64,000 bases of DNA from Thermoplasmata archaeon (GCA_021792255.1 JAJYUZ010000003.1:160001-224000); one strand, 5' to 3'. Positions 13,154 to 38,571 are shown, numbered from the stretch's first letter. Numbers and translations: made by a program. The notes: a model not told the origin generated them from the letters alone.

Positions 13154-15844
13154 GTGATAGCAAATTCGGGTATTGTGCTCAAGGACGGAAGCCTTGTCGT
13201 TGTCAGGGAATTCAACAGATCCGATCTATCCAAATTCAAGGAATTTATCTACTCCCTTTCAGATTCTGCCATTCAAGGCAGATTTATGCAAAATATTCCA
13301 AGAGATGCTGCCATCGAGCTTCTTCTAGCTAAGGGAGTGACTTCGGTGGTGGCAGTCAGAGATGATAAGATAATCGCCCACGGAGCACTTTATGAAAATG
13401 TGAAAGAGACTTCTGAAATGGGAATCCTCGTGGACGACAAGTATCAGTCTCTCGGTCTCGGGACGGCCATGCTCGGATTACTCGCAGAGCATGCGGTGAG
13501 ATCGGGTGCTGGTGAGATTAGAGCGTATGTTTCTCCAGAGAACTATAAGATGATCGCTGCGGTCAAGAATCTGGGATTTGCGGTCGAATCTTCTGCAAGA
13601 CCCGGAGCTCTGGAGGTCAGATTTTCTCCCTCCTCTCTTCCCGAGGCAATAAACAATTTCGAGAACAGAGACGCCATATCTGCGGTCAATGCAGTTAAAA
13701 TTTTCCTAGAGCCAAAGAGCGTTGCAGTCATAGGAGCTTCTTCGAACAGATCATCAATTGGTGGACAACTTTTCTTCAACCTGCTCGAGAGCAACTTCAA
13801 TGGTCAGATATTCCCTGTCAACCCTTCCCACGACTTCGTGCAGGGAATTCGGACCTACAGGTCAGTAAAGGAAATAGATTACCCCGTAGGATTGGCAATC
13901 ATAGTCGTTCCCGCAGAGCAATCCCTAAGAGTAATAGAAGAGTGCGGAGAGAAGGGAGTGAAGGGACTGGTGATAATCACATCTGGCTTCTCCGAGATAG
14001 GAGGAATCGGAAACGAGAGACAGGAACAACTCTCGAAGATCTGTGATAAGTATGGTATGAGGGTAATCGGACCTAACTGTATGGGCGTAGTGAACAATTC
14101 TGATATAGTGAACCTCAATGGCCAGTTTTCTCCGTTCAAGCCGGTGAAGGGCAGGGTGTCTTTCCTTTCTCAATCCGGAGCCCTAGGGATCGCGGTCTTT
14201 GACATTACTACAAAACTCGGACTGGGGCTGAGCTCTTTTGTTTCAGTTGGGAACAAAATGGACATTTCTAGCAACGACCTGATACAGTACTGGGAAAATG
14301 ACAAAAACACTGACGTCATCCTGCTCTATCTGGAATCCTTCGGGAATCCCATAAAATTCTCGAGACTAGCTAGAAGAGTAACGAAGAAGAAACCCATAAT
14401 AGTAGTCAAGAGCGGGAGAGGTTCTGCTGGATTCAGGGCTACCCAATCTCACACAGCTGCATTGCTTTCCACTTCCGATGTCACCGTCGATGCCCTCTTC
14501 AAGCAGAGCGGAATAATCAGGACGGATACTCTGGACCAGATGTTCGATGTCACTTCCGTGCTCGCCCATCAGCCCGTCCCAAGGGGTGACAGGGTTGCGA
14601 TACTGACAAATGCTGGTGGCGCTGGCATATTGGCAGCCGATGCTTGTGAGTCCCATGGCCTAATCGTTCCTGATCTCCCAGAAGAAGCTAAAGAAAAACT
14701 CAGGAAACTTCTTCCCGCGATTGCAAGCGTGAGGAATCCGGTAGATATGACTGCTGGAACGGGACCTGAAGCATATGAAAAAGCGCTGGAAATACTGGGT
14801 TCGGTCGATGAGATCGATTCCATAATTGTCATCTTCATCCTCCCTACCGTACTGGATCCAAACGACGTCGCGAGGAACATTATTGCTGGAACCGAGAAAA
14901 TAAACAATTCCAAGACCATAGTGTCCGTTTTCATGGGTACGAAGGGAGTTTCACAGGTATTGAAGGGAGAGAAGGTAAGTATCCCATCCTTCACTTTCCC
15001 CGAAGACGCTGCAATTTCGCTCTCAAAAGCCGTGGAGTATGGCAGATGGAAGTATGCACCTGTCAGAACTATTGGGGAAAAAGAGGACATTGACAAAGAT
15101 ATGGTCAAGGCAATCATATCAGGAACCCTGAGAGAGGGAAGAGAGTGGTTGACTTATGATGAGTGCAACGCTGTTCTTAACACGTATAAGATCCAAACCG
15201 TAAAGACTGCAACCGCTATGAACAAGGAAGAGGTCAGAATAAAGACTCAGGGATGGTTGGGAAAGGTGGCGATCAAGGCTTATGGGCCTAAGCTCATTCA
15301 CAAGAGCGACGTTGGTGCCGTAAAGTTGAATGTGCCAGTTCCTGACGCAGCGTACGAGGCAGGTCAAATGATCTCGATGCTCAGCGCTAAGGGCTTAGAA
15401 GTTGAATATCTGGCCATCCAGGAGATGGTTCCAGAGGGGATTGAGATGATAGCTGGATCAACTCACGATCCAGCATTTGGCCCGATCATAGTCGCGGGTA
15501 TGGGAGGAAAGCTCGTAGAACTCCTGAAGGATATTTCCACCAGACTTGCGCCGATCGAGAAGGAAGACGCAGACCAAATGATCGCTGAACTCAGGACCGC
15601 ACAGATATTGAGAGGTTATCGAGGCGGTATAGTCGCAGACGAGGATTCCTACAAGGATGTCATCGTGAGAGTATCCCGACTCGTCTTCGATAATCCAGAA
15701 ATATTAGAGCTAGACCTAAACCCAGTTCTGGTTCTTGAAAAGGGAAAGGGCTCGAAAACAGTCGACTTTAGGATCAGGGTTGGCAATCTCCCACAGAACA
15801 GTCTGCCTTTCGTGGCAAAGAGCATAATCAAGAGCACTCCCTGA
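13154..15844 (+). CDS. GNAT acetyltransferase fused to ADP-forming acyl-CoA synthetase alpha+beta domains (Pat/PatA-like)
   Basis: N-terminal SEMGILVDDKYQSLGLGT (GNAT motif A); PKSVAVIGAS, GPNCMG, SQSGAL, SHT, NPVDM; ATP-grasp HKSDVGAV, ELDLNPV. Confidence 0.9.
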   Translation: MIANSGIVLKDGSLVVVREFNRSDLSKFKEFIYSLSDSAIQGRFMQNIPRDAAIELLLAKGVTSVVAVRDDKIIAHGALYENVKETSEMGILVDDKYQSLGLGTAMLGLLAEHAVRSGAGEIRAYVSPENYKMIAAVKNLGFAVESSARPGALEVRFSPSSLPEAINNFENRDAISAVNAVKIFLEPKSVAVIGASSNRSSIGGQLFFNLLESNFNGQIFPVNPSHDFVQGIRTYRSVKEIDYPVGLAIIVVPAEQSLRVIEECGEKGVKGLVIITSGFSEIGGIGNERQEQLSKICDKYGMRVIGPNCMGVVNNSDIVNLNGQFSPFKPVKGRVSFLSQSGALGIAVFDITTKLGLGLSSFVSVGNKMDISSNDLIQYWENDKNTDVILLYLESFGNPIKFSRLARRVTKKKPIIVVKSGRGSAGFRATQSHTAALLSTSDVTVDALFKQSGIIRTDTLDQMFDVTSVLAHQPVPRGDRVAILTNAGGAGILAADACESHGLIVPDLPEEAKEKLRKLLPAIASVRNPVDMTAGTGPEAYEKALEILGSVDEIDSIIVIFILPTVLDPNDVARNIIAGTEKINNSKTIVSVFMGTKGVSQVLKGEKVSIPSFTFPEDAAISLSKAVEYGRWKYAPVRTIGEKEDIDKDMVKAIISGTLREGREWLTYDECNAVLNTYKIQTVKTATAMNKEEVRIKTQGWLGKVAIKAYGPKLIHKSDVGAVKLNVPVPDAAYEAGQMISMLSAKGLEVEYLAIQEMVPEGIEMIAGSTHDPAFGPIIVAGMGGKLVELLKDISTRLAPIEKEDADQMIAELRTAQILRGYRGGIVADEDSYKDVIVRVSRLVFDNPEILELDLNPVLVLEKGKGSKTVDFRIRVGNLPQNSLPFVAKSIIKSTP

Positions 15845-23130: not shown

Positions 23131-24624
23131 ATGACCTATCAAATGTTTGTTAACGGGGAGTGGAAAGATTCCTCGGATGAACAGAAGATCTCGGTTATAA
23201 ATCCTGCGACTGGATCAATAATTGCTGAAGTCCCAAGCGCCAGTTCAGAGGATGTTGCACTCGCAGCTGAATCTGCGAAAGAATCTTTCTTTGAAGGTAC
23301 TTGGAGCAGAATTAGTCCTGGTGAAAGGGCGACCGTTCTCCTCAAAGTAGCACAAATAATGGAAGACAGGACGCAGGAGCTGGCGAAGCTGGAAACTCAG
23401 ATATCCGGTAAATCTATCAAACAGTCATCGGGGTACGATCTGCCATACACGGTAGACAACGTTAGATTCATCGCTGGAGCTGCGAGAATTCTCGAAGGAA
23501 AGGCGATGGGTGAATATGTACAGGATGGCACAAGTGCAATCAGGAGAGAGCCTATCGGTGTGGTAGGAGTGATAACACCATGGAACTATCCGCTGATGAT
23601 GGTCGTTTGGCGGGCATTTCCCGCTCTCGCGATGGGAAACAGCGTGGTGGTAAAACCCGCAAGCTACACTCCTTTGACGACCCTTGAACTTGCAAAAATT
23701 ATGGAAAAGGCCGGCGTTCCCAAGGGTGTTTTCAATGTTATCACAGGACCTGGGGGAAAGGTAGGAGAAGAACTAGCTGGAAACAAGAACATAGACATGA
23801 TCGCGTTTACGGGAAGCACAGAGGTTGGCAAGAGACTATCAGAACTCGGATCTTCCACTCTCAAGAAAGTTTCTCTTGAGCTTGGTGGTAAGGCTCCTTT
23901 CATCGTTTTTAGAGATGCGGACCTTGATGCTGCGACAGAGGGTGCTGTAGTCGGTGGCCTTGTCAACAATGGCCAGGATTGTGCAAACGCTACCAGATAT
24001 TATGTGCACGAATCCGTAAAGGACAAGTTTGTCGATCTTCTATTAAAAAAGCTTAAGAAAGTCAAAGTTGGAGATCCTACTGACCCCAGTACTGACATTG
24101 GACCGCTCATATCCAGCTCACACAGGGACAGAGTCGAGGGGTATATCGAGAGGGGAGTGAAACAGGGAGGAAAACTTCTGGAAGGAGGTAGTAGACCCAA
24201 ACTGAAAGGAATGGAGAATGGATTCTTCCTCAATCCGACGGTGATCTATACTGAAAACCAGAAATCTGACATTGTTCAGGAAGAAATATTCGGTCCCGTT
24301 TTCAGTGTGCTTCCGTTTTCGACGTACGATGAAGCAATCGCCAATAGCAATGACGTGGTCTATGGACTGGGTGCCTCGGTCTGGACGAAGGACGTCACAA
24401 CGTCGATGAGAGCGGTAAGGGACCTGAGATTTGGGACCGTGTGGGTCAACGAACACATTCCAGTACCATCAGAGATGCCATGGGCGGGTTATAAACAGAG
24501 TGGCCACGGTGCCTCTCTTTCGCCCTACAGCCTAGAGGAATTCACTTACATCAAGCACGTTTATTTTGATCTGACGGGCGGAGTAAGAAAGAGCTGGTAC
24601 TACCAGATTTATGGAGGGCAGTAG
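23131..24624 (+). CDS. NAD-dependent aldehyde dehydrogenase (aminobutyraldehyde/betaine aldehyde type)
   Basis: ITPWNYP, FTGSTEVG, LELGGK, catalytic GQDC, EEIFGPV, EMPWAGYKQSG. Confidence 0.93.
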   Translation: MTYQMFVNGEWKDSSDEQKISVINPATGSIIAEVPSASSEDVALAAESAKESFFEGTWSRISPGERATVLLKVAQIMEDRTQELAKLETQISGKSIKQSSGYDLPYTVDNVRFIAGAARILEGKAMGEYVQDGTSAIRREPIGVVGVITPWNYPLMMVVWRAFPALAMGNSVVVKPASYTPLTTLELAKIMEKAGVPKGVFNVITGPGGKVGEELAGNKNIDMIAFTGSTEVGKRLSELGSSTLKKVSLELGGKAPFIVFRDADLDAATEGAVVGGLVNNGQDCANATRYYVHESVKDKFVDLLLKKLKKVKVGDPTDPSTDIGPLISSSHRDRVEGYIERGVKQGGKLLEGGSRPKLKGMENGFFLNPTVIYTENQKSDIVQEEIFGPVFSVLPFSTYDEAIANSNDVVYGLGASVWTKDVTTSMRAVRDLRFGTVWVNEHIPVPSEMPWAGYKQSGHGASLSPYSLEEFTYIKHVYFDLTGGVRKSWYYQIYGGQ

Positions 24625-25917
24625 GTGATCAAAATGAACTCTGATGGATATAATCCTTTGAAAGTGAATACAAACCTGGACTTCGGAAACCCATCGAGAG
24701 TAGTTTTTGGATTGGGTGCTGCGTACAACAGTTTGCCAGGACTCATAAAGGAGCTCAACCCGAAAAAAACCGTCCTGGTGAGCGATGAAATAGTTTCCAA
24801 GACAGGTGCTCTGGAAAAAATAGAATCGTCTCTCAAGGCGGCGGATTTGAAATTTGAGGAGCTGCTGATCCCGGTCGGCGAGCCGACGACAGAGATGACA
24901 AGAGACCTTGTAGATAGAGCCCGTAAAGATAGACCAGAGATGTACGTAGGGATAGGTGGAGGAAGCGTACTTGATATGACAAAGTTGATGTCGATAATGG
25001 TGACAAATCACGGAGAGCCAAAGAATTATTACGCACTACCTCCGGATCCCTGGTCCGATAAAGTTACCAACGTCGGAGTAAGGAAAATTCTAATTTCGAC
25101 TACCGCAGGTACAGGCAGTGAGACCTCTAACACTCTTGTAGTGACAGAAGGTGGTTACAAAACGTGGATAACGAGTTCAAAGGTCACTGCAAACGTATCG
25201 CTCATCGATCCATCGTTGACTTTTACCTTGCCCCCGGTCGCTACGAGAAACACTGGAATGGATGCACTAAGCCACTTGATCGAGGGAGTGCTGACAAACA
25301 TGCCAAACCCCGTATCAGATGGAATGATCCAACAGGGAGTCCATCTAGTTTCCAAGTATCTCGTTAGGGCATACAACAACGGAAATGATGAAGAAGCGAG
25401 AGTGAACATGTCTTTTGCCGCGATGATGGGAGGCTGGGTGATTGCGTTCCCATGGGTCGGTGGCCCCGCAACTATTGGGCACTGCATGTCAGAGGCTCTG
25501 GGTCCGAAATTTGGTATCCCCCATGGATTCGCGTGCGCGATAATGTTGCCTCACGCTATGGACTTTAACCTTCCACTGGTCGCGCCTAGACTCAGATCAG
25601 TCGCAGAAGCGTTTGGGGTGGATACGTACGGACTTTCTGATATAGAAGCTGCCTCCGAAGCCATAAATTCCGTAGTATCACTAATGAAGAGTCTGGAGAT
25701 GCCAGTTGCCCTGAAGAATGCTTCTAAATTCAAAAAGGACAGGCTTGCAGAGATGTTCGATTATGTGCTGAACGAAAGGCAGTACATTTACAACCTCCCT
25801 GTCTACAATCCGAGGAGACTGACCAGAGAGAATTTGTCAGAATTGTTTGATGATGTCTGGGAGGGCAAGTTCACCACGGCTTCAAAGCTGGCAGAGGGTA
25901 GCGTGAAAACTTTTTAA
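24625..25917 (+). CDS. Iron-containing (class III) alcohol dehydrogenase family
   Basis: GGGSVLD, TTAGTGSE, metal ligands DALSH, GHC, PHG. Confidence 0.9.
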   Translation: MIKMNSDGYNPLKVNTNLDFGNPSRVVFGLGAAYNSLPGLIKELNPKKTVLVSDEIVSKTGALEKIESSLKAADLKFEELLIPVGEPTTEMTRDLVDRARKDRPEMYVGIGGGSVLDMTKLMSIMVTNHGEPKNYYALPPDPWSDKVTNVGVRKILISTTAGTGSETSNTLVVTEGGYKTWITSSKVTANVSLIDPSLTFTLPPVATRNTGMDALSHLIEGVLTNMPNPVSDGMIQQGVHLVSKYLVRAYNNGNDEEARVNMSFAAMMGGWVIAFPWVGGPATIGHCMSEALGPKFGIPHGFACAIMLPHAMDFNLPLVAPRLRSVAEAFGVDTYGLSDIEAASEAINSVVSLMKSLEMPVALKNASKFKKDRLAEMFDYVLNERQYIYNLPVYNPRRLTRENLSELFDDVWEGKFTTASKLAEGSVKTF

Positions 25918-25968: not shown

Positions 25969-26100
25969 ATGTCACTGAAGGTCGGAGATAGAGCCCCAGA
26001 CTTTGACAGATTGACGGACGTCAGTGAAAAAATCCATGAGTGCAAAACTAAAGAACGACTCCATCTTCTATCCAAAGAACACTTCTAAGATGTTCTGAAG
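25969..26100 (+). pseudogene. bcp: Decayed 5' fragment of peroxiredoxin (Bcp/PrxQ)
   Basis: MSLKVGDRAPDF.RLTD.SEKI, then shifted frame SAKLKNDSIFYPK; colinear with the longer bcp pseudogene at 35834. Confidence 0.7.
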
Positions 26101-26426
26101 CTTATTTCTGCCTATTTTAGTCTAAATACCTCGAGCATTTGAAACGCACCTTAATATCGATACTGAAACTAATGCTAGATCAAGACAATCGGAGTACATA
26201 AAAAAAACCAATATTATTTTTTCAAGGAAATAGAGTCGTCTGTATCTTGTGCTTTTATTTGCGATCCAGTCAGTGGCTCTACAAATTGGGCTTGTGTTCC
26301 AAGACGTCACTTATCTAATTGATCGATATTCTTAGTTTGCAGTATACTTGTAGATAGCAAGAATGAAAAGTAAGAATAAGGGGTTGGTTCAATTAACATT
26401 TAATATTAAAAAATCCCTATGCTATT

Positions 26427-27770
26427 GTGTATAGAATCGGCATAGAAGAACACGATAGCACCTTCTATGCGATAGTTCTGACAAATAATGACAAAGTTCT
26501 ATGGAAGGGAAAAAACAAAGATCTGACTGAACTTCTGAACCTTCTCGACGAAAGTGAAGCGCTGAAAGGGCATGATATCGAGTATGCAGCATTTTCAACC
26601 GATATTGTAAACAGCATTTCTCCAGTTATGAAAAGAACTTCCCCCATTGTTCTGATAAAAGTGGGAGGATCCAAAGATAACTTTTCTTATGTGTCTACAG
26701 AGAGGAATTCTCGCCCCTTCAAGGGATTGGAAATTCATAATTACTTTATTAAGGGTGCAATGAAACCATATGGAGAAGAAGAATCGCCTTTAGATTCCAA
26801 GGAAATCAAAAAAATAGCCAAAATACTCAACGAAGACAAAAGTGTTAAGGGAGTTGGGATCATAGGTCAATTCTCAAACTTTTTACCTCAGCATGAAGAA
26901 AAGATCGCAAGAGAGCTGAATAAGACTATTGAGAGAAAGATTTCAATTTGTTTGTCCTCATTGGTGTCCCACAGGAGCCTGGTGTACAGGGAAAGACTCC
27001 TCGTTATGAACCTAATTTTGGCAATTTCAGCCAGTCAGCATCTGATATTCATAGCAGAAAAGTTGAAAGAGTACCTAGGGCGTTCAAGACTCTATTTCTT
27101 AGGTTCTGATGGTTCACTAGTGCCAAACGAGACGGCACTTAATTACCCAGTGCTGCTGAATGGGTCGTCATACGTGTCGAAAATTGTTGGGCTTGGTGCA
27201 ACCACTGATTTGAAAGACCTCAACTTGATTACCAAGCTCGGAAAGAAGATTGTCCTCATGTCGTCATTCGATGGCGAGCCAGTATTAAAGAGGAAGGAGG
27301 ATACCTTTAAGAAAGGAATCAACGTTTTTTCTTCTGGAGTCATGAGACCGCTGAGTGGCAGATCAGAAGAGATTGAGCTCGTAATAAGAAATCTTAAAAA
27401 GAAAGATGAAACAACTACCGTGATAGACAAGAGTATCTTTCAAGAGTACCCCAAGCTTAATACCTGCGGTGCCAGATTGCAAAAGGTAGACGGATACCTA
27501 GGGGCTATGGGAGCAGTCTCAGCACCAATAAGGTTGACAATGGATTTCCTAGGCTCTATCCAGTTCAGTGGGAGGAAAGAAATATTGGAATCCTTCAAGA
27601 ACATTGTCAGGGAAAAAATCATAGAGGTGGGAGCAAAAACTGAGTCGGTAAGAGTCGTTCAAGTGGAAGAGATCCCTCTAAGTTATTTACCATGGGATAG
27701 CCTAAGAATCAGGATTTCAGTTGAAGGAAGACCGGGAGGCAGCCCCACATCTGGAGGCAAGCGGAAGTGA
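26427..27770 (+). CDS. Divergent hydantoinase-A/oxoprolinase-like protein lacking ATP-binding motifs (putative pseudoenzyme)
   Basis: Colinear with the 32813 protein (RIGI start, YGEEESPLD, RERLLVMN, SDGSL, GAMGA, QVEEIPLSYLP..LRIRISVEG) but DVGST and DVGGATT are lost. Confidence 0.75.
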   Translation: MYRIGIEEHDSTFYAIVLTNNDKVLWKGKNKDLTELLNLLDESEALKGHDIEYAAFSTDIVNSISPVMKRTSPIVLIKVGGSKDNFSYVSTERNSRPFKGLEIHNYFIKGAMKPYGEEESPLDSKEIKKIAKILNEDKSVKGVGIIGQFSNFLPQHEEKIARELNKTIERKISICLSSLVSHRSLVYRERLLVMNLILAISASQHLIFIAEKLKEYLGRSRLYFLGSDGSLVPNETALNYPVLLNGSSYVSKIVGLGATTDLKDLNLITKLGKKIVLMSSFDGEPVLKRKEDTFKKGINVFSSGVMRPLSGRSEEIELVIRNLKKKDETTTVIDKSIFQEYPKLNTCGARLQKVDGYLGAMGAVSAPIRLTMDFLGSIQFSGRKEILESFKNIVREKIIEVGAKTESVRVVQVEEIPLSYLPWDSLRIRISVEGRPGGSPTSGGKRK

Positions 27771-27777
27771 GTTTGAT

Positions 27778-28269
27778 TTGATTGAAAGGGGAGAGACTAA
27801 ACAAGAAGAGCACCTGGACGAGATAGACATAGGCATAATTAATATCTTGCTGGAAGACGGAACCAAGAATTTGAGTCAAATTGCCTCTGTACTTAAAGTG
27901 GGAATAGCCACCGTTCACAGAAGGCTAAGGAAACTTAGGGATGAGGGTGTTATTGAGGGTTATACCCTTCTAGTGAACCCGAAGAAGTTGGGTCTTAATG
28001 TGATTGCAATTACTTCCCTGAAAGTCGTGTCAGGCAGAGAACAAGAGATTCTCAAAGAGGTCGAAAAGATTAGAGATGTAACTGAGATATACAAGATCTC
28101 CGGCCAATTCGAGATAATCTTGAAGATAAAGGCAGGAGATCTTGGGGAACTGAACAAGATTCTAGACAGGATCAAGATAGTAAACGGAATTCAAGAGATA
28201 AACACGAGCGTGGTTCTTGAAGTCCTTCGGGATCAACCCATACACCCTATCGGTGGTGAGACCAAATGA
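27778..28269 (+). CDS. Lrp/AsnC family transcriptional regulator
   Basis: LDEIDIGIINILLEDG..LSQIA..TVHRRLRKLRDEGVIEGY HTH plus RAM domain (ISGQFEII); TTG 27778 preferred over the track start 27721. Confidence 0.93.
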   Translation: MIERGETKQEEHLDEIDIGIINILLEDGTKNLSQIASVLKVGIATVHRRLRKLRDEGVIEGYTLLVNPKKLGLNVIAITSLKVVSGREQEILKEVEKIRDVTEIYKISGQFEIILKIKAGDLGELNKILDRIKIVNGIQEINTSVVLEVLRDQPIHPIGGETK

Positions 28270-29300
28270 AGATAGGAAGGAGAGAGCTCGAATCCCTCTC
28301 TTGTGGCTCGGAGATAATTGGAGGGGGAGGAGGTGGGAATACCTTTCCTGTAAGATCTGTCCTGAATTACTATCTGAGGGAAAATCATCCTCCAGTAACC
28401 ATCGGAATTGATGACATTTCAGATTCAGCATTGGTAATGGGCGTAGCCTATCTTGGCTCTACTATGGTGATTGAAGAGAGGCTTCCGCAGGGACGGAATC
28501 TTATTTCTTCAATTAAGACTCTCGAGAATTTCATAGGAGAGAAAACATCGGCAATAATTCCAATAGAGGGGGCAGGCGTGAATGCTTTAATTCCTCTCTT
28601 GGCCTCAGTAAATTCAAAAACACCAGTGATAGATGCTGACGGCATGGGACGCGCATTCCCTGAACTTTCTATGACTACATTCTCCATAAATGGAATATCT
28701 GCTTCCCCTCTCACAATTTCAGACGATCGAGGGAATGTGGTGGTTGTAGAGGAGCTTGAAGAAAAGCTGACAGAAGAAATGGTCAGAGGGATTGCTCTTA
28801 TATATGGAGGTGGCGCATGGCTAACTGCCTTTCCCATGACCGGAGCGGAAGCAAGAAAGTTCAGCATAAAAGGGACTATTTCAAGGAACATTCGGATAGG
28901 AGACGTACTCTTGGAAAACACATCACCAAAGGAGAAAATCAAGAAGTTAGAGAGAGAATTCAACGTGAGATTGGTTGGTGAGGGCTACGTAAAAGAGATC
29001 TTTAGATACAGGGAAGGAAAGTTCTCGAAGGGTGACCTGTTCATAAAATGTTATGATGACAGATTTCTAAAGGTATCTTTTCAGAACGAATACCTGATGA
29101 TCACTGAACAAGATGAAGTAATAGCCAGTGTTCCCACCATAATCACACTAATTGACGCATATACCCTCAGACCCATAAGGACTGACGAGGTTACAACGGA
29201 AGACGAAGTATTAGCTATATGTATTCCAGAGCCTGATGAACTCAGAACCAATAAAGCTCTCAACAAGGTCGGGCCGAGAGTCTTTGGATACAAAATATGA
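28266..29300 (+). CDS. DUF917 family protein (paralog 1)
   Basis: GGGGGG, PIEGAGVN, DADGMGRAFPEL, FQNEYL, VGPRVFGY. Confidence 0.9.
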   Translation: MKIGRRELESLSCGSEIIGGGGGGNTFPVRSVLNYYLRENHPPVTIGIDDISDSALVMGVAYLGSTMVIEERLPQGRNLISSIKTLENFIGEKTSAIIPIEGAGVNALIPLLASVNSKTPVIDADGMGRAFPELSMTTFSINGISASPLTISDDRGNVVVVEELEEKLTEEMVRGIALIYGGGAWLTAFPMTGAEARKFSIKGTISRNIRIGDVLLENTSPKEKIKKLEREFNVRLVGEGYVKEIFRYREGKFSKGDLFIKCYDDRFLKVSFQNEYLMITEQDEVIASVPTIITLIDAYTLRPIRTDEVTTEDEVLAICIPEPDELRTNKALNKVGPRVFGYKI

Positions 29301-29423
29301 ATAGATCCTGTTCAGTCTTTCTTTAACAACCTCTTGACACTTGCGTGCCAGAGCTCTTAAATAAGAAGCTAGGAGATAGTGGACTAATCTTGATGGCTTT
29401 CATTTCTTATGAATTAAAATACC

Positions 29424-29441
29424 AAAAAAAAATATATAAAA
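29424..29441 (-). terminator. Oligo-U terminator of the permease operon
   Basis: Minus strand TTTTATATATTTTTTTTT immediately after the stop at 29445. Confidence 0.5.
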
Positions 29442-29444
29442 TAC

Positions 29445-29846
29445 TTAGTCCAGAAAGTATATCTTCTTTCTCGCCACGTCAACAATCATAAACACTGCCA
29501 ACAGAGATATGACTGTCAGAAGTACCACCTGTATCGCTACTGTCGCCGCGTTATCTGCGAAGTACTTTCCGAACAACAACGACAACACCGCGGTGGTAAC
29601 GGAAAACGTAAGCCAAGAATGCTGTGCTCCAATCTTGCCAAATTTTTCAGAGCCCTCAGGACCATGCTCTTTCACAGTAGTCACCCGTACTAGTCCAAAT
29701 ACTGCAGACAGAACATTGACCAGTGCAAGTATCTCGAGCTCTATAGACGTAGCCTTGTTTGATGCGGTCAGTACTGCCACCAAAGTCACGAGGGACAGCA
29801 CTGCAAAGAGTGCCAGCGTTAAATTGACCGTCTTCTTTAGATCCAT
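29445..29846 (-). CDS. Small 4-TM membrane protein co-transcribed with the NCS1 permease
   Basis: Four hydrophobic helices; starts 2 nt after the permease stop, with an SD-like GGAGG inside the permease 3' end. Confidence 0.8.
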   Translation of the reverse strand: MDLKKTVNLTLALFAVLSLVTLVAVLTASNKATSIELEILALVNVLSAVFGLVRVTTVKEHGPEGSEKFGKIGAQHSWLTFSVTTAVLSLLFGKYFADNAATVAIQVVLLTVISLLAVFMIVDVARKKIYFLD

Positions 29847-29848
29847 GA

Positions 29849-31291
29849 CTATTCCTTCCCTCCTGAGGACTTGGGAGATTCTCCTATTGCGGCCAACAGT
29901 TTCCTATGTTCATACTCACCAAACTCATATCTAATATTCAGCGCCTTGCATACGTAAGCGATGATTATGTAGGCAACTATCCCCACAACGAATGCATTAA
30001 CGGCGGCAATACCGATGTGTAAAAATAGTCCAGTTGCAGCGCCTATCGCGAAACTTAATATGCCGTTTACGTTTATTTCAGGATACTTACCTTCCGTGGT
30101 AAATTTGTACCGGTCTTCAAATCTCCGTATCCCCTTGACGTATCTGTGAACTATATAGAAATCAGCAATGACAACACCAGCAGCTGCTGGCAGCAAATCT
30201 CCAAGCACGGTTATAAAATTCTCAAACGGAGCTATGGATGCACCGGAAGTGTATCCTATCCATGCAGCTATCCCAACTCCTATGACGCCGTTTATGATTG
30301 CAGCAGTTCCACGTTTCATCTTCCAGAGATTTACGAGCGAAAGAGAGCCCGAATAGAGGTTAACTGCGTTTATGCATAGTTGCCCGAGAATTATGATCAG
30401 GAGTACCGCTATCCCCATCCCAACGCTTAACATGGCTTCCGTAACGAGGTATGTACCAGTTACAAGAACAAGTGCCACGCCACCCAGTATGAGGAATGGA
30501 TAGATGGCAAACATGTGAGTAGTCCAAGAGACCCAAGCGATTGTGCCTGATTTCGAGAACCTCGCTAGGTCACCTGCAATGAGTGCACCCGCTATGTACA
30601 ATCCGACAGCAGCTGTAATTCCCTCCGCCATTGAATAGGGATGGAGCGGTCGGAGAGTCAATAGATTACCGCCCCCATGCACCAGAGAGAGGGCGATAAT
30701 AAAACCTACGCCAATCAACCATATGTGCTGCGGAAGCGCTATGTAAGTGAGGAACGATAGTGCCCTGTAACCTATGTACGTTGCAAGAACCATCAGTGCA
30801 CCCCCCCAGAGAGAATCAAAGACTATGTTGTGAAGCAGACCAGTTGCAAACATCTCAGACATGACTATTCCAAACAACCATGTTTCTACAGCGTACCATC
30901 CTATGCCTGTCGTGACCATTATGAGCACGACTCCAAATATTCCAGCCGGTATTCTACCAAAAGAATATCTCCAGTTCAGATAGGTGGAGCCTCCACTCTT
31001 GGCAGACATGAAACCGGTTAAGGAGCCAATTATGGCTAGTATGGTGCTTGCTGCAAACACAGCTATTACTGCACCTACAAAAGTCAGACCGTATCCAAGC
31101 GCTCCTCCTCCCCACACGACAGCAATCGCTGCGAACGAAGCATTCATCACCATGAACAGGTTGAAAAATCCTCTTCTGGATTTCCTTGGAACTTCTTTAA
31201 GTGAGAAGTCGTCAACTATGTCTCCAAGCTTGTTTTTAGAAGGATTTTTTGACATCTGCCCGGTCGGAGCGTTCTCTCCAGCCATGGTCAA
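29849..31291 (-). CDS. NCS1 family (cytosine/purine/hydantoin) permease
   Basis: DDFSLKEVP..RR, RYSFG, GIGWYAV, DLARF, NLYSGSL, GVVIADFY; about 12 TMs. Confidence 0.9.
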   Translation of the reverse strand: MTMAGENAPTGQMSKNPSKNKLGDIVDDFSLKEVPRKSRRGFFNLFMVMNASFAAIAVVWGGGALGYGLTFVGAVIAVFAASTILAIIGSLTGFMSAKSGGSTYLNWRYSFGRIPAGIFGVVLIMVTTGIGWYAVETWLFGIVMSEMFATGLLHNIVFDSLWGGALMVLATYIGYRALSFLTYIALPQHIWLIGVGFIIALSLVHGGGNLLTLRPLHPYSMAEGITAAVGLYIAGALIAGDLARFSKSGTIAWVSWTTHMFAIYPFLILGGVALVLVTGTYLVTEAMLSVGMGIAVLLIIILGQLCINAVNLYSGSLSLVNLWKMKRGTAAIINGVIGVGIAAWIGYTSGASIAPFENFITVLGDLLPAAAGVVIADFYIVHRYVKGIRRFEDRYKFTTEGKYPEINVNGILSFAIGAATGLFLHIGIAAVNAFVVGIVAYIIIAYVCKALNIRYEFGEYEHRKLLAAIGESPKSSGGKE

Positions 31292-31739: not shown

Positions 31740-32816
31740 GTGAGAGATTTAAACGTCCAGGATTTGGAGAATCTCGAGGTGGGGGCTGGCATCCTTGGAA
31801 CCGGTGGAGGTGGGGACCCCTATATAGGAAAACTCCTCGCAAGGGAACAACTCCTAAGGGGGAAGAAAATCACACTCGTAGATCCAAAGGAGGTAGATTC
31901 TGAGTCCGAAATACTCCCAGTAGCGATGATGGGAGCTCCCGTGATTATGATCGAGAAAGTTCCAGGAGGCAAGGAAGTTGTAAAATCTCTAGAGTATTTC
32001 GAAAAGAATCTCAAAGAGAGTATTGATTTCATCACTCCTATTGAGATTGGGGGAGTAAATTCAACTGTACCTTTGGCAGTGGCGGGCATGACGGGTAAAC
32101 CCGTAGTTGATGGCGATGGTGAGGGAAGGGCCTTCCCGGAGCTCCAGATGGTCACTTTCCACTTAGGAGATATCCAGGCGTCTCCAGTCGCAATGTTTGA
32201 TGAACGCGGAAACAACAACATTGTAATGGCCACGGATAATGTCTGGGCGGAGCGCATAGCTAGATCTGTCACGGTCAGATTTGGTGGGAGCGCGTACGTC
32301 GCCCTCTATCACATGAAAGGGATAGACTACAAAAAGTGGGCAGTTCTGAATACCATTACAAAATGCATAGACATAGGCGATGCTATTATGGACGCTAAGA
32401 GATCTGGTAGAAATGTTTTTGACGCCCTCCTTGACGAGACAGGAGGGGTTATGATCTTTTCAGGAAAAATCATCGAAGTGAAAAGGGAAGTGGAGAGAGG
32501 ATTTGCGAGGGGTTCCACTGTTATAGAAGGCTCTGGGGAATTCAGGAACAAACATATGAGGATAGACTTCCAGAACGAGAACCTTATGGCCAGTATAGAT
32601 GGCGAAATCATCACCAGCGTGCCCGATCTCATAACCATCCTAGACAGCGAAACTTCAGTTGCAATAACCACAGAGCACCTAAAATATGGGTTTCGTGTAA
32701 ACGTGATGGTAATGAAATGCGACGAGAGATGGAGAACAGCTAAGGGACTGGAGACAGTTGGCCCCAGATACTTTGGGTATGACATAGAATACAGACCGAT
32801 GGAGGAATTAATTTGA
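31740..32816 (+). CDS. DUF917 family protein (paralog 2)
   Basis: GILGTGGGGDP, MGAPVIMIEK, PIEIGGVNS, DGDGEGRAFPELQM, FQNENL, VPDLIT, VGPRYFGY. Confidence 0.92.
   Translation: MRDLNVQDLENLEVGAGILGTGGGGDPYIGKLLAREQLLRGKKITLVDPKEVDSESEILPVAMMGAPVIMIEKVPGGKEVVKSLEYFEKNLKESIDFITPIEIGGVNSTVPLAVAGMTGKPVVDGDGEGRAFPELQMVTFHLGDIQASPVAMFDERGNNNIVMATDNVWAERIARSVTVRFGGSAYVALYHMKGIDYKKWAVLNTITKCIDIGDAIMDAKRSGRNVFDALLDETGGVMIFSGKIIEVKREVERGFARGSTVIEGSGEFRNKHMRIDFQNENLMASIDGEIITSVPDLITILDSETSVAITTEHLKYGFRVNVMVMKCDERWRTAKGLETVGPRYFGYDIEYRPMEELI
32107..32150 (+). repeat. 44-bp perfect direct repeat, copy 1 (copy 2 at 34736-34779)
   Basis: TTGATGGCGATGGTGAGGGAAGGGCCTTCCCGGAGCTCCAGATG is identical in DUF917 paralogs 2 and 3. 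Confidence 0.95.
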
Positions 32817-34363
32817 AGGTAAGAATTGGGATTGATGTCGGTAGCACAAACACGGATGGGGTGGCCCTTGATGAAAACAACAACGTGCTCACCAAAGAAA
32901 AGTTCCAGACTACGGAAGACATTTCCACAGGTCTTTTCAACACCCTTAGAAAGGTCATTCAGAATCTCGGCAATTCGAAAGGATATATTGGAAGTGTAAT
33001 GATTGGAACCACTCATGGATTAAATGCCATTACATCTCGGGTAGGGCTTACAGAGGTTCTAGCGATCAGGATAGGTCTGCCTGCCGGAGAGGGGATTCCT
33101 CCCCTGTCAGATTGGCCAGAGGAACTGAAGGAGGCCATAGGAAACCATATCCTTATGGTAAGGGGAGGACACGAATATACTGGAGAAGAGATAGTTAAAT
33201 TCGACGAAAATGGTCTGAGAAATTACCTTGCAAATTATAGGGGAAAGATTAAGTCTGTTGCCATCACTTCGATCTTTTCGTTCGTAAACCCAGAACACGA
33301 ACTCAAAGCAGAATCCATAGTGAAAGAAGTATTAGGGGAGGAAGTCTTAGTAACACTCTCCAACAAGATCAGCAGTCTCGGTCTACTTGAAAGGGAGAAC
33401 TCTACGATTCTCAACGCAAGCATAAGACCACTAATGATGAGAATTATTGTGTCAATAGAAGAGATACTCAAGAATCTTGAACTGGGAGATGTAAAACTGT
33501 ATTTTGCACAGAATGATGGAACCGTCGCCTCAGAAGACTTTGTGCGGAAATTTCCGATTTTCACCGTAGCAGGACCAATATCAAACAGCATCAGGGGTGC
33601 ATTTGTACTCACAGGAATCGAAAATGCCGTTGTCTTTGATGTAGGGGGTGCCACTACCAACGTGGGGGCACTGACAAACGGTTATCCGAGAGAGTCCAGC
33701 AATCCTGTCATAATAGGGGGTGTCAGGACGAATTTCAGGATGCCTGACATCTTATCCATACCGCTTGCGGGTGGGACTATAGTCAGGGATAAGATAGGAC
33801 CTGATACGCTCGGTTTCAGGTTGACAAAAGAGGCAATATCATTTGGAGGAGATGTATTGACGGCTACAGACATTGCGCTGAACGCGCTGAAGATTGATCT
33901 TCCTGGAGCCGAAAGGTCTAGGGTTTTGAAAAAGTTTGACAATGATTTCATAACAAGTAAATATGTGACGATGAGAAATATGTGGGAAAATTGCCTTGAT
34001 AAGATAAAGACAAAAGCCGGGGATGTCAGGCTTGTGACCGTGGGTGGTGGCGCCTTCATGATACACAGCAAGCTTCGAGGTTCGTCAGACGTGATAAGAC
34101 CGGAAAGTGCACAGTATGCTAATGCAATTGGGGCAGCAACAGCCCTTATTGGTGCAAGGATTGACAGAGCATATTCTTACGAGGCTGTGAAGAGGGAAAA
34201 GGCCATAGAGGAATCAATTGAGCAGGCAAAATCTATCTCTGTAGAGGCGGGGGCAGTACCGTCGACCATAGAAGTGAAGGAAGTGGAAGAGGTGTCTATG
34301 CCTTACCTCCCGGGTAATTCTGTCAAGATATCAGTAAAGGTAGTGGGAAAAATGGCACAATGA
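32813..34363 (+). CDS. Hydantoinase A / oxoprolinase family ATPase (ASKHA fold)
   Basis: RIGIDVGSTNTD, GTTHGLNA, LERENSTILNA, QNDGT, DVGGATT, VGGGA, NAIGAA. Confidence 0.92.
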   Translation: MKVRIGIDVGSTNTDGVALDENNNVLTKEKFQTTEDISTGLFNTLRKVIQNLGNSKGYIGSVMIGTTHGLNAITSRVGLTEVLAIRIGLPAGEGIPPLSDWPEELKEAIGNHILMVRGGHEYTGEEIVKFDENGLRNYLANYRGKIKSVAITSIFSFVNPEHELKAESIVKEVLGEEVLVTLSNKISSLGLLERENSTILNASIRPLMMRIIVSIEEILKNLELGDVKLYFAQNDGTVASEDFVRKFPIFTVAGPISNSIRGAFVLTGIENAVVFDVGGATTNVGALTNGYPRESSNPVIIGGVRTNFRMPDILSIPLAGGTIVRDKIGPDTLGFRLTKEAISFGGDVLTATDIALNALKIDLPGAERSRVLKKFDNDFITSKYVTMRNMWENCLDKIKTKAGDVRLVTVGGGAFMIHSKLRGSSDVIRPESAQYANAIGAATALIGARIDRAYSYEAVKREKAIEESIEQAKSISVEAGAVPSTIEVKEVEEVSMPYLPGNSVKISVKVVGKMAQ

Positions 34364-35430
34364 CGTGGAGACTGAGGCACGAAGACATCGACATATTGAC
34401 TCTTGGAAGTTCTCTCCTGGGTTCAGGCGGAGGAGGAAACCCATACATTGGAGGCCTCTTGCTAAAGAAGTCGATGGAGAAATTAGGCATAGATGGGATA
34501 GAAGTTATCGCCCCCGATAGTATTAATGACGATGCTACAATAATCGCTTCTGCAGGGATGGGCTCTCCGACAATTGGATCTGAAAAATTGCCGAATGGTG
34601 AAGAGTATGCCCGGTCGTTGTCGAGACTTGAGAAAGATATGGAAATTGAATTTGAATACGTGACGCCTTCGGAGATTGGAGGGGCCAACTCGGTCGTACC
34701 CTTCATAGCTGCTCTGTTTAGGGGCCTTCCAGTGCTTGATGGCGATGGTGAGGGAAGGGCCTTCCCGGAGCTCCAGATGACGACCTTCAATCTGTACGGT
34801 ATCTCTTCCACTCCAATGTGTCTTGCGGACGAGAGAGGAAACGAACTGATCATCAACTCGGTTGATAATCTCTGGGCAGAAAGCATTGCAAGGTCTGTGA
34901 CCGCACGTTTTGGGGGAAGGGGATACGTGGCCAATTACCCAATGAGTGGAAAGGACTACAAGAAGTCGGCAGTAAAGAATTCAGTGAGTAGAGCAAGAGA
35001 TCTCGGAGAGCTCCTCTCCAGGGGGATGAGGAACAATTCGGTTGAAGATGTGCTGACAAAAGAAGCAGGCGCCAGCGAGCTTTTCGATGGCAAATTGACA
35101 GATCTTGTAAGAGAAAACAATGGTGGTTTTTCCATAGGCTATGCGATTTTCCGGTCGACAGAAGGAGAGAAGACCTCAAGAATTAGATTTCAGAACGAGT
35201 ATCTGTTCTTTGATGAGAAAATCGAAGGAGATATGATAGAGATTGTTACTACTCCCGAGATTATCTGCATACTCGATAGGGAAACATACATGCCAATAAC
35301 AACGGATAGGCTACGATACGGCCAGAGGTGCAAGGTATTTAGTCTTCCAGTTGGCGAAAAGTGGAACCATCCACTTGCGGATGATCTGGTAGGTAGAAGA
35401 GTATTTTCGGTTTTGAAACACTTTCAGTAG
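34360..35430 (+). CDS. DUF917 family protein (paralog 3)
   Basis: GSGGGGNP, MGSPTIGSEK, PSEIGGANS, DGDGEGRAFPELQM, FQNEYL. Confidence 0.9.
   Translation: MTWRLRHEDIDILTLGSSLLGSGGGGNPYIGGLLLKKSMEKLGIDGIEVIAPDSINDDATIIASAGMGSPTIGSEKLPNGEEYARSLSRLEKDMEIEFEYVTPSEIGGANSVVPFIAALFRGLPVLDGDGEGRAFPELQMTTFNLYGISSTPMCLADERGNELIINSVDNLWAESIARSVTARFGGRGYVANYPMSGKDYKKSAVKNSVSRARDLGELLSRGMRNNSVEDVLTKEAGASELFDGKLTDLVRENNGGFSIGYAIFRSTEGEKTSRIRFQNEYLFFDEKIEGDMIEIVTTPEIICILDRETYMPITTDRLRYGQRCKVFSLPVGEKWNHPLADDLVGRRVFSVLKHFQ
34736..34779 (+). repeat. 44-bp perfect direct repeat, copy 2
   Basis: Identical to 32107-32150. Confidence 0.95.
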
Positions 35431-35833: not shown

Positions 35834-36284
35834 ATGAAATTTAAAACAGACGATCGAGGACTAGATTTTGGGGTCTGACTGACAGTGGAGAGAGAATTAC
35901 ACTGAGTGAAAAATTGAAAGAAGGACCAGTCCTCTTGTACTTCTATCCGGAGGATGAAACTCCTGGATGTACTACAGAGACGTGCTCATTCAGAGACAAC
36001 TGGGATGAGATAAAGAAGGTGAGAGCGACTGTGCTGGGAGTGAGCTTTGACTCAGTTGATTCCCATAAGAATTTTAAATCGAACCGGCCCCTACAGTTCA
36101 TCCTCGTTTCTGATGAGAGTAAGGCGATCAGAGAAGCATATGGAGCTACTGGTCTACTGATACCCCACGTATAGCTTTTGTGATAGACAAAGGCGGAACG
36201 ATAAAGGAAGTCTATAGTTCTCAGCTCAATGCGACCAACCACGCTGATGTAGCACTGAAAACATTGAAATCTGTTAGGCAGTAA
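35834..36284 (+). pseudogene. bcp: Peroxiredoxin Bcp/PrxQ pseudogene with two frameshifts
   Basis: MKFKTDDRGLDF, shift, GLTDSGERITLSEKLKEGPVLLYFYPEDETPGCTTETCSFRD...GLLIP, shift, PRIAFVIDKGGTIKEVYSSQLNATNHA...stop 36284. Confidence 0.85.
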
Positions 36285-37380: not shown

Positions 37381-38571
37381 TCAAAGCTTGCTCTTTACAA
37401 AATCTATGAAGACCTCTGCATCTCCGAAAACATTGGACAGTTTGGCATACTCATTGGGCATGTGTTCAGTTTCATCAAGAGTGCCCCATACTATTGTGTC
37501 TAGCCCTTTGTTCCTAAAGAATGCTCCGCAGGTCCCTCCACCTATTCCAACTCTGTTGACTTCAATCCCCCTGATCTTCTTGATACTGTTTATGAATTTC
37601 TGAACAAATTCCTTTCCTTCTGGAGTATTGGAAGATGGGTTTGCCCTGTTGATAAATTCAAGCTGAACTTCCACTCCAAATTCCTCCTTAAATTCGTTAG
37701 TCACTTTCTCCACTTCTTTGAAAACTTCATCAATTGAGTATCTCGGAAGAATCCTCATATCGAAATAGAAGCTCTCTTTACCGGGGATGATGTTTATCGA
37801 TGTCGTCCCGGGTTCCACTTTTGTAGGTTCAAACGTGCTCATAGGAACAGTGAATTCTGAATCGGTCGCGTTGAATTTTGAATGGAGATCTTTGTCCAAC
37901 CTCAACTCCAGCTCCCTTGCTAATCTATGGGCGTTCTTTCCAGCATCCGGGGTCGATGCGTGACATTGCTGCCCCACGACGCTTATCTTGAGCCATATCA
38001 ATCCCTTTTCCGCTATCTCCACCGAGTCCCCTTCCGGAGTGCCAAAATCAGGAACTACGAATTTGTCGTTTTTACTGAATTTCTTGTTACGAAGAACGTA
38101 GTCTATACCGAAGGTGCTTCCAGCCTCCTCGTCTGAAACAAATATTACGCCTATGTTGTTCTGCAATTCCTCTGGACACTCCAAGAAGTACTTTAGTGCG
38201 ATCAGGGAAGAAATTCCTCCTTGTCCGTTATCGCACGTCCCTCTTCCATAAATTTTATCTCCATCGATTGTGGCCTGGAAAGGGGGATATTTCCATAGAC
38301 TTAGGTCGCCCTCACTTACTGTGTCCATGTGCGCGACAAACCAAACAGTCTTCTCCTTTCCCTTGTCCAGTAGAAACAGGAGGTTCGGTCTCTTGATTCC
38401 ATCGGATACCGCTACATACTCTTCGAATTTCAAGCCCTTGTTCCAGCTCAGTATCTCCCTCTTAAGGAATTCGGCTCTCTTTTCTTCCCCTCTTCCTCCA
38501 CCGGCAGGGTTAACTGCATTTATTTCAATCATCTTTGAGTACAAGTCTAAGAAGTAGTCCCTATCACTCAT
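37381..38571 (-). CDS. M20 family metallo-hydrolase (ArgE/DapE-like)
   Basis: AHMDTV, GRGTCDNG, SDEEAGS, GQQCHASTP, EHMPNEY. Confidence 0.92.
   Translation of the reverse strand: MSDRDYFLDLYSKMIEINAVNPAGGGRGEEKRAEFLKREILSWNKGLKFEEYVAVSDGIKRPNLLFLLDKGKEKTVWFVAHMDTVSEGDLSLWKYPPFQATIDGDKIYGRGTCDNGQGGISSLIALKYFLECPEELQNNIGVIFVSDEEAGSTFGIDYVLRNKKFSKNDKFVVPDFGTPEGDSVEIAEKGLIWLKISVVGQQCHASTPDAGKNAHRLARELELRLDKDLHSKFNATDSEFTVPMSTFEPTKVEPGTTSINIIPGKESFYFDMRILPRYSIDEVFKEVEKVTNEFKEEFGVEVQLEFINRANPSSNTPEGKEFVQKFINSIKKIRGIEVNRVGIGGGTCGAFFRNKGLDTIVWGTLDETEHMPNEYAKLSNVFGDAEVFIDFVKSKL

Follow-up and report, generated by a model that had tools for sequence, protein, structure and literature searches.

A 64,000-nucleotide (nt) stretch of a Thermoplasmata archaeon assembly (GCA_021792255.1, JAJYUZ010000003.1:160001-224000; this whole stretch is referred to as the window) carries on its plus strand a compact triad of genes. 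The first is an uninterrupted open reading frame (ORF) of 447 amino acids (aa) at 26427-27770 that encodes P0001, a protein with a HyuA-type ASKHA fold in which the PHOSPHATE 1 and PHOSPHATE 2 motifs for ATP binding are lost and the segment bearing the adenosine motif is deleted, and which we term a pseudo-HyuA. It is followed by the gene of an Lrp/AsnC regulator (27778-28269) and by that of P0004, a variant DUF917 protein of 344 aa (28266-29300) whose start overlaps the Lrp stop by 4 nt. Alignment with orthologs from two further loci places the Lrp start at TTG 27778, 7 nt after the P0001 stop, and gives a product of 163 aa within a frame that is open from TTG 27721. A preliminary description of this DNA had proposed a single apparent operon; its coordinates and frames for the triad were all confirmed, and the tight gene order is conserved in three of three loci. 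The reference for comparison within the window is P0002, an intact short-type HyuA-like ATPase of 516 aa (32813-34363, plus strand) with all three ATP motifs.

A HyuA-type fold without the ATP-binding motifs

Among the Pfam models, P0001 matches Hydant_A_N (PF05378) alone, and this match is weak and partial (28.5 bits over residues 72-167, with the cut-off at 25.2). No match to Hydantoinase_A (PF01968) was found at E<=0.01, whereas P0002 matches both domains, and an NCBIfam scan of P0001 matched nothing. The preliminary description had regarded the protein as an uninterrupted HyuA-like ORF devoid of ATP-binding motifs, and translations and alignments bear this out. The P0002 motif RIGIDVGSTNTD is replaced by RIGIEEHDSTFY in P0001, DVGGATT lies opposite LITKLGKK and VGGGA opposite VIDKS, while the structural motifs GEE, RE..N, DGS, GAMGA and EEIPLSYLP persist. 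The further statement that the two proteins align end to end requires qualification. They are colinear in an 86-row family alignment, but significant BLASTP similarity is confined to two blocks of P0001 (residues 104-243, 25% identity, and 357-435, 30%), and P0001 lacks ~75-90 residues equivalent to ~300-385 of P0002. This deleted segment is the GGVRTNFRMPD...GGG...GP.S.G...GG..T.TD stretch, which carries the adenosine motif.

PMC5214803 gives the ATP signatures of HyuA and the ketone carboxylases as PHOSPHATE 1 (DxGGTxDDT), PHOSPHATE 2 (DVGGT) and ADENOSINE (GxxPGP). None of the three is present in P0001, and PHOSPHATE 1, PHOSPHATE 2 and the GGG stretch are missing in all six rows of the P0001 family. 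An AlphaFold model built on the 86-row alignment reached a predicted local distance difference test score (pLDDT) of 89.8 and a predicted template modelling score (pTM) of 0.90, with values below 50 only at residues 289-304 and 443-447; it supersedes a first run on six sequences (pLDDT 54, residues 246-383 unmodelled). The best Foldseek matches of this model are seven HyuA-type alpha chains (E 2.5e-17 to 7.7e-13, query-based template modelling score TMq 0.56-0.67), namely N-methylhydantoinase 9h03, acetone carboxylase 5svc, 5m45 and 5svb, acetophenone carboxylase 5l9w chains B and b, and caprolactamase 6yra. Further down the list, at E 4.5e-5 and weaker, come small ASKHA kinases and ROK proteins. 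Because a confident model matches seven HyuA-type chains, the kinship of P0001 with HyuA is more than chance.

At 17 positions with at least 70% conservation among 36 intact relatives, all members of the P0001 family agree on another residue; these replacements include D->E7, T->F13, G->S57, T->D59, N->S251, S->K252, A->L358 and N->G359. The P0001 family and the intact proteins have 34 other family-invariant residues in common, including E157, R188, E189, N195, G229 and P241; E157, R188, E189 and P241 are invariant in all 86 alignment rows. The replacement count, drawn from five distinct P0001-family sequences, suggests that the inter-domain cleft was remodelled rather than randomised, as would be expected of a site that now binds a substrate or another ligand.

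Conservation and distribution of the triad

The P0001 family consists of six sequences, five of them distinct, together with the outgroup P0009. Full-length orthologs share 40-48% identity, the frame is intact and free of stops in all six family sequences, and 120 of the 447 positions of P0001 are invariant across them. A word-indexed search recovered three relatives beyond the window's own protein (43-45% identity, 98-100% coverage). An exhaustive profile search of 1.84 billion representatives returned 547 proteins at E<=1e-3 and four at E<=1e-30: the window's own protein, P0007 (also recovered by the word-indexed search, among its three relatives), the 436-aa P0009 (4.3e-58) and an 88-aa fragment. 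A full-length ortholog occurs in 1 of the 401 genomes searched in the class, which is the window's own, and in 1 of the 167 searched in the order of locus L001 (below), which is the L001 genome; none of the five genomes searched from the same genus contains a HyuA-like match. The close orthologs of P0004 number only four, each of 344 aa and at 62-68% identity, and its next relatives are at 45%; this rarity mirrors that of the pseudo-HyuA, a co-distribution that we count in favor of a partnership. The triad is a patchy, lineage-restricted module.

DNA was available for two loci apart from the window, both of Thermoplasmata type: L001, a contig of the metagenome-assembled genome that holds the single ortholog found in its order, and L002, a metagenome contig. 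Both have the gene order M20 deacylase, pseudo-HyuA, Lrp, DUF917, a 135-aa ORF (minus strand), an NCS1 permease (minus), a DUF917 gene (minus) and another DUF917 gene (plus). The order pseudo-HyuA/Lrp/DUF917 and the 4-nt overlap of the latter two genes are shared by the window, L001 and L002. Synonymous sites are saturated in every gene of the cluster by the Nei-Gojobori method (proportion of synonymous differences, pS, 0.73-0.90), and the proportion of nonsynonymous differences (pN) is given against pS instead of a proper dN/dS ratio. For the pseudo-HyuA, pN is 0.34-0.39 against a saturated pS of 0.78-0.84. The corresponding pN values are 0.20-0.24 for Lrp, 0.19-0.23 for the operon DUF917, 0.10-0.12 for the NCS1 permease and 0.12-0.13 for the M20 deacylase. 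No gene of the cluster evolves faster than that of the pseudo-HyuA, yet it is clearly under purifying selection, and the evolutionary comparison that the preliminary description had suggested speaks against neutrality.

The regulator gene and its upstream region

The Lrp protein has an N-terminal AsnC-type helix-turn-helix (HTH) and a C-terminal RAM (AsnC_trans_reg) ligand-binding domain, both above the Pfam cut-off, and its NCBIfam matches to Lrp/LysM/LrpA-like models all fall under the equivalog cut-offs. The HTH is nearly invariant among the three orthologs. No fused form of Lrp was scored among 2242 candidates, which is weak evidence. We read this protein as the local regulator of the module.

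Upstream of the triad, a TATA-like box, TTTAATATTA (26399-26408, plus strand), lies 19-28 nt 5' of the GTG start of P0001 and is likely the triad's own promoter. When the window, L001 and L002 are aligned, a TTTA[AT]TAT box ~25 nt 5' of the GTG start and the start context TGTGTA coincide, a pattern that suggests a promoter specific to the triad and a leaderless-type transcript. A scan for bacterial-type promoters and terminators gave counts no better than those of shuffled sequences, and no consistent inverted repeats that might serve as Lrp boxes were shared upstream of the triad in these loci.

The variant DUF917 protein as predicted partner

The window encodes three DUF917 proteins, which are exactly those of its genome. 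P0004 matches both Pfam domains, S-Me-THD_N and S-Me-THD_C, with 159.7 and 136.7 bits (cut-off 27). The two canonical members score higher (183.8/238.0 and 176.4/150.8); they are encoded on the plus strand on either side of the P0002 gene, DUF917 a at 31740-32816 on its 5' side and DUF917 b at 34360-35430 on its 3' side. P0004 lies below the NCBIfam equivalog cut-offs for thiohydantoin desulfurase and S-methyl thiohydantoin desulfurase (65.4 vs 440 and 62.3 vs 450 bits). It retains the DUF917 core, comprising the glycine loop GGGGG, E71, E101, N106, D123, D125, GRAFPE, R174 and QNE, and departs from near-universal DUF917 residues at P26, G29, E78, F238, K241, G252, Y311, G312 (otherwise 100% Gly) and R314.

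Complex prediction for P0001 and P0004, each with its own family alignment, gave a median ipSAE of 0.82 (runs of 0.83, 0.82 and 0.78), and the best of three controls scored 0.00. Of 80 solved complexes, 58 attain this mark, as do 2 of 110 mismatched pairs; these counts are a rough guide only, as the pair was run on its own alignments. The runs had at least 71% of contacts in common, with a partner pLDDT of at least 79. These predictions support binding of the pseudo-HyuA to the operon's own DUF917. The sole solved relative of DUF917, 2o3i, is a lone chain, and the prediction is therefore unlikely to be the recall of a solved complex.

The predicted contacts of P0001 (residues 82-90, 113-114, 148-151, 184-187, 279-292, 307-326, 375 and 415-427) coincide with the family-invariant motifs S..NFSY, FSN, SLVY(RE) and EIP.SYLP, and family-invariant residues make up 21 of the 41 predicted contacts against 99 of the 406 other positions (Fisher p = 4e-4). 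Five of the contacts, F149, P417, Y420, P422 and R427, are common to P0001 and its intact relatives. On the DUF917 side the predicted contacts include residues 25-36, which follow the glycine loop, residues 63-77 with the near-universal E71, R174, and residues 311-313.

Two DUF917 motifs that are otherwise near-universal, GGGG-x-P-x-x-G and [RK]YGxR, fall in this predicted interface, and their occurrence follows the type of the neighboring HyuA-like gene. Both are missing in four of four DUF917s beside short HyuA-like genes (the triad members of the window, L001 and L002, and one from Parageobacillus), and both are retained in four of four complete DUF917s beside long ones (one from Parageobacillus, one from locus L011, and the window's DUF917 a, with GGGGDPYIG and LKYGFR, and b, with GGGGNPYIG and LRYGQR). 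At six more class-level loci, where DUF917 is truncated C-terminally, the N-terminal motif is intact beside long genes. Among 128 DUF917 rows, 103 have both motifs, 14 neither and 11 a mixture, many of the 14 being kin and not an independent test; a strict regular expression finds [RK]YGxR in 18 of 27 fusion-length proteins. We infer that the two motifs serve an ATP-dependent dialogue with the segment found in long HyuA-like proteins and became dispensable once that segment was gone. No P0002-type ATPase gene lies within 8 kb of the triad in L001 or L002, and none was found in a search of the L001 genome, whose completeness is not reported, where the sole matches were a classical HyuA frame of 714 aa and the pseudo-HyuA.

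Each of these two loci contains two further DUF917 paralogs that lack [RK]YGxR (L001 12808-13938, minus, and 14218-15267, plus; L002 13325-14455, minus, and 14720-15784, plus). In one of them the conserved E71 region is followed by an insertion of 12 residues. Beyond the paralogs lies a nitroreductase gene and, in L002, also an AroM gene.

Origin and relatives of short HyuA-like proteins

Simple regular expressions for the three ATP motifs were applied to 102 proteins of 380-600 aa, comprising the P0001 family and its relatives. All three motifs are missing in 30 proteins, 27 of which are 436-473 aa long and six of which form the P0001 family (one a duplicate); all three are present in 41, of which 38 measure 505-547 aa. 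A FastTree phylogeny of 91 rows, from which ten fragments and one duplicate were dropped and to which long-branch warnings apply, requires 8 changes to explain the motif-less state, at least 5 of them forced by well-supported branches. The clade of P0001, including P0009 (support 100), forms a separate deep long branch that is not sister to P0002, and P0001 is only 16-23% identical to the 80 non-family alignment rows, P0002 included. The preliminary description had assumed a duplicated HyuA/DUF917 pair; a recent duplication of the neighboring one is not supported. Short, often motif-less HyuA-like paralogs beside DUF917 arose several times, a pattern previously undescribed in the literature searched. 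The order of events on the tree would be shortening first and motif decay afterwards, repeatedly.

The arrangement on plasmid pGEOTH01 of Parageobacillus thermoglucosidasius (NC_015665) is sigma-54 regulator, DUF917, a short HyuA-like protein of 463 aa, cytosine permease, DUF917 and a long HyuA-like protein of 519 aa. The motif-less P0047, from Brevibacillus marinus, belongs to the clade of this short protein, and both carry the annotation 'hydantoinase/oxoprolinase N-terminal domain-containing protein', in the case of P0047 as its NCBI name. A tblastn search of plasmids with a second dead relative, P0044, gave only long, intact-type genes among the matches listed.

HyuA-like and DUF917 domains are fused in eight of eight long relatives scanned, in both domain orders. 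A single Rosetta-stone case that links the enzyme family with transcription factors is P0088 (594 aa), in which a GntR-type HTH is fused with a HyuA-like ASKHA domain whose ATP motifs are largely intact. In P0118 (2715 aa), a HyuA-like/DUF917 fusion lies N-terminal to NB-ARC and TPR domains, an architecture similar to STAND/NLR proteins.

Comparison with characterized systems

The multidomain ASKHA alpha fold of N-methylhydantoinase (9h03/7hk5), the caprolactamase CapA/CapB (6yra), acetone carboxylase (5svc) and acetophenone carboxylase (5l9w) extends over the whole length of P0001. The pair would likewise share the two-component logic of HyuA/HyuB systems, in which an ASKHA subunit is combined with a second, hydrolytic subunit. 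Unlike those systems, P0001 lacks PHOSPHATE 1, PHOSPHATE 2 and the adenosine segment, has 447 aa rather than ~650-1290, and is accompanied by DUF917 instead of HyuB; a search of the window's own genome, of 93.55% completeness, gave no HyuB (PF02538) match. Closest to P0001 in sequence (E 1e-27 and weaker) are the short HyuA-like ATPases of ~515 aa, which have DUF917 as a neighbor or fusion partner and share with P0001 the residues E157, R188, E189 and P241 and the C-terminal contact motif E.P..YLP. These ATPases differ in keeping the three ATP motifs and the ~75-90-aa segment, and their DUF917s keep GGGG-x-P-x-x-G and [RK]YGxR.

The short protein of pGEOTH01 resembles P0001 in lacking the same segment and in adjoining a DUF917 without the same two motifs, and its operon also includes a permease and a long HyuA-like/DUF917 pair. 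It differs in that it keeps PHOSPHATE 1, PHOSPHATE 2 and GGG, belongs to a different clade and has no regulator gene between the partners. Acetophenone carboxylase offers another parallel, as paralogous HyuA-type subunits, alpha and alpha', coexist in one system; unlike P0001, neither paralog has lost its ATP motifs, and ADP is bound in alpha' (PMC5214803); alpha' was ruled out as a precedent for a dead subunit on this ground.

Interpretation

On balance, P0001 is probably a selectively maintained non-ATPase subunit, structural or forming a substrate pocket, of the variant DUF917, and the pair would constitute an ATP-independent derivative of the HyuA-like/DUF917 system. The ATP independence is deduced from the loss of the ATP site together with the predicted retention of the heteromer with P0004. 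P0001 would thus be a shortened HyuA-type ASKHA protein in which canonical ATP binding has presumably been lost, whose inter-domain cleft appears remodelled and conserved, and which is predicted to form a heteromer with the DUF917 of its own operon through a retained HyuA-DUF917 contact surface. The HyuA-like/DUF917 system is presumed to open the rings of hydantoin-, lactam- or cyclic-dipeptide-like compounds, with DUF917 as the likely catalyst. Comparing sequences and structures, a preprint suggests that DUF917 proteins so far uncharacterized may be hydantoinases. The Lrp gene between the partner genes would most simply encode a transcription factor that acts locally on the module and probably controls its own expression. 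Substrate uptake would fall to the NCS1 permease and a downstream step to the M20 deacylase. With these two genes in the window, and with a peptide ABC transporter, an S9 peptidase, AroM and a nitroreductase in L002 as well, the gene context fits the import and degradation of a cyclic amide that originates from amino acids or peptides.

Several considerations count against this interpretation. The binding of P0001 to P0004 is predicted from model confidence, a measure that a near paralog of the genuine partner may satisfy as well, and the invariance statistics are weak, given a family of six sequences (five distinct) plus P0009. The co-variation of the DUF917 motifs comes from few independent lineages, as related rows are not independent, and the missing intact partner in the L001 genome is unproven at a completeness that is not reported. 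The pseudo-HyuA evolves ~2x as fast as Lrp and DUF917 and ~4x as fast as the permease and the M20 gene, which is compatible with a relaxed, less critical role. Finally, the conserved placement of the Lrp gene between the partner genes is left unexplained by a model in which the pair is an enzyme.

This placement speaks for the sensor or co-regulator role that the preliminary description had advanced. In such a scheme the pseudo-HyuA, alone or with DUF917, would bind a small molecule in its remodelled cleft and modulate Lrp as a co-regulator of the catabolic cluster. The tight spacing of the three genes at all three loci and the exchange of cleft residues for different invariant ones, in place of randomisation, are in keeping with this idea, and the HTH fusion of P0088, in a single relative, keeps it alive. 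The ASKHA fold serves as the sensor of a transcription factor in ROK-family repressors. They are an analogy for this proposal only: their Foldseek matches to the P0001 model are weak (E ~2.5e-3), and their HTH resides in the same chain, whereas Lrp is a protein separate from P0001. Direct support was not obtained. Lrp possesses a complete RAM ligand-binding domain of its own, P0004 retains the conserved core expected of an enzyme, and the Parageobacillus pair has no regulator gene between its members, its sigma-54-type regulator lying just 5' of the pair. The search for fused Lrp forms was negative, which again is weak evidence, and no P0001-family member longer than 447 aa was found at E<=1e-30 among the 1.84 billion representatives. 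We therefore consider an enzyme-derived sensor unlikely, and the same judgment applies to its extended form, in which the pair would no longer be primarily an enzyme and the three proteins would together report a hydantoin- or cyclic-peptide-like metabolite to Lrp. This most exciting possibility is at present unsupported.

The other proposal of the preliminary description, an inert subunit of a heteromeric enzyme, fits better of the two, with the qualification that the predicted partner is the operon's own DUF917 and not necessarily the intact HyuA-like enzyme. In its wider form, P0001 would be part of one large heteromer with the intact ATPase (32813-34363) and its two flanking DUF917s, in which the intact ATPase would still consume ATP. 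The window has the two pairs inside 9 kb, with a single permease gene in their midst, the Parageobacillus plasmid has the same layout (DUF917, short HyuA, permease, DUF917, long HyuA), and acetophenone carboxylase unites two HyuA paralogs in one complex (PMC5214803). However, no P0002-type gene accompanies the triad within 8 kb in L001 or L002, and the search of the L001 genome found none. The triad is preceded by a conserved box of its own that resembles a promoter, it is oriented divergently from the other operon or set apart from it, and the acetophenone carboxylase paralogs, which both keep their ATP motifs in the same account, set no precedent for a dead subunit. This larger assembly is conceivable and we rate it as doubtful. 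A kinase-type subunit that depends on ATP or another nucleotide through a non-canonical site, such as the invariant E7-E8, would account for the conservative change of the first PHOSPHATE 1 aspartate to an invariant glutamate and for the conserved cleft; it is very improbable, as both PHOSPHATE motifs have lost their glycine/threonine phosphate loops, the segment with the adenosine motif is missing and the nearest outgroup, P0009, lacks the glutamate pair. A decaying duplicate without function, to which the rapid evolution of P0001 and the low guanine-plus-cytosine (GC) content of the region (0.40, below the flanks) might point, is refuted as far as sequence data can do so: the frame is intact in all six sequences at 40-48% identity, pN is half of the saturated pS, 120 of 447 positions are invariant, and a confidently predicted fold is retained.

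In the literature searched we found no biochemical characterization of a HyuA-like/DUF917 pairing and nothing on DUF917 function beyond a suggestion. New relative to this literature are a conserved HyuA-like partner that lacks the ATP motifs, the coupled loss of motifs in its DUF917 and an Lrp gene fixed between the two. The claim that no such arrangement had been described holds to this extent; short or dead HyuA-like proteins beside DUF917 are, however, not unique to this genome. The gene type of P0001 is already labelled generically in databases, and the parent two-component system is known and itself uncharacterized.

The HyuA-like/DUF917 pairing is widespread, including fused forms, and a partner without an ATP site is a ready-made experiment for determining which DUF917 motifs communicate with the ATPase and which surface holds the proteins together. 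Loss of ATP dependence in this enzyme class may have proceeded, repeatedly in evolution, through coupled motif loss on both sides of the subunit interface. The pair also raises the question of whether DUF917 can open rings without ATP. P0001 adds a conserved pseudoenzyme subunit to the hydantoinase/oxoprolinase superfamily, in which annotation pipelines will call genes of this type hydantoinases. The embedded Lrp gene provides a handle on the inducer, and hence the substrate, of an orphan pathway in acid-mine Thermoplasmata-type archaea.

Neighboring genes and additional observations

The gene of the NCS1-family permease (cytosine/purine/hydantoin type) lies 3' of the triad on the minus strand (29849-31291); the protein has a Transp_cyt_pur domain and a cytosine-permease-like NCBIfam match below the cut-off, and is 81-82% identical to the L001 and L002 copies. 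The M20 deacylase of ArgE/DapE type is encoded further away in the window (37381-38571, minus), and its ortholog in L001 and L002, with 77-79% identity, lies directly 5' of the pseudo-HyuA. A small hydrophobic ORF of 133 aa (29445-29846, minus), 3' of the permease gene, has no Pfam or NCBIfam match and is kept across loci at 133-135 aa and 50-55% identity (L001 10973-11380, minus; L002 11477-11884, minus); it may encode a small membrane subunit or accessory protein of the NCS1 transporter.

Genes for an aldehyde dehydrogenase and an iron-type alcohol dehydrogenase (23131-25917, plus) are located directly 5' of the triad across an intergenic region of 509 bp. Downstream, an 86-aa ORF (35914-36174, plus) is matched by PrxQ/Bcp peroxiredoxin models in their middle only (profile positions ~29-107 of 156), and may be a gene remnant or an ORF with another true start. 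GC content falls to 0.40-0.43 over 26001-30000 from 0.45-0.48 in the preceding 4 kb, and the triad cluster looks like accessory, possibly transferred, DNA. No RNA run was among those listed as covering 26300-29400; the stretch recurs near-identically in DNA runs of three studies, labelled as mine drainage, mine tailings and sediment metagenomes.

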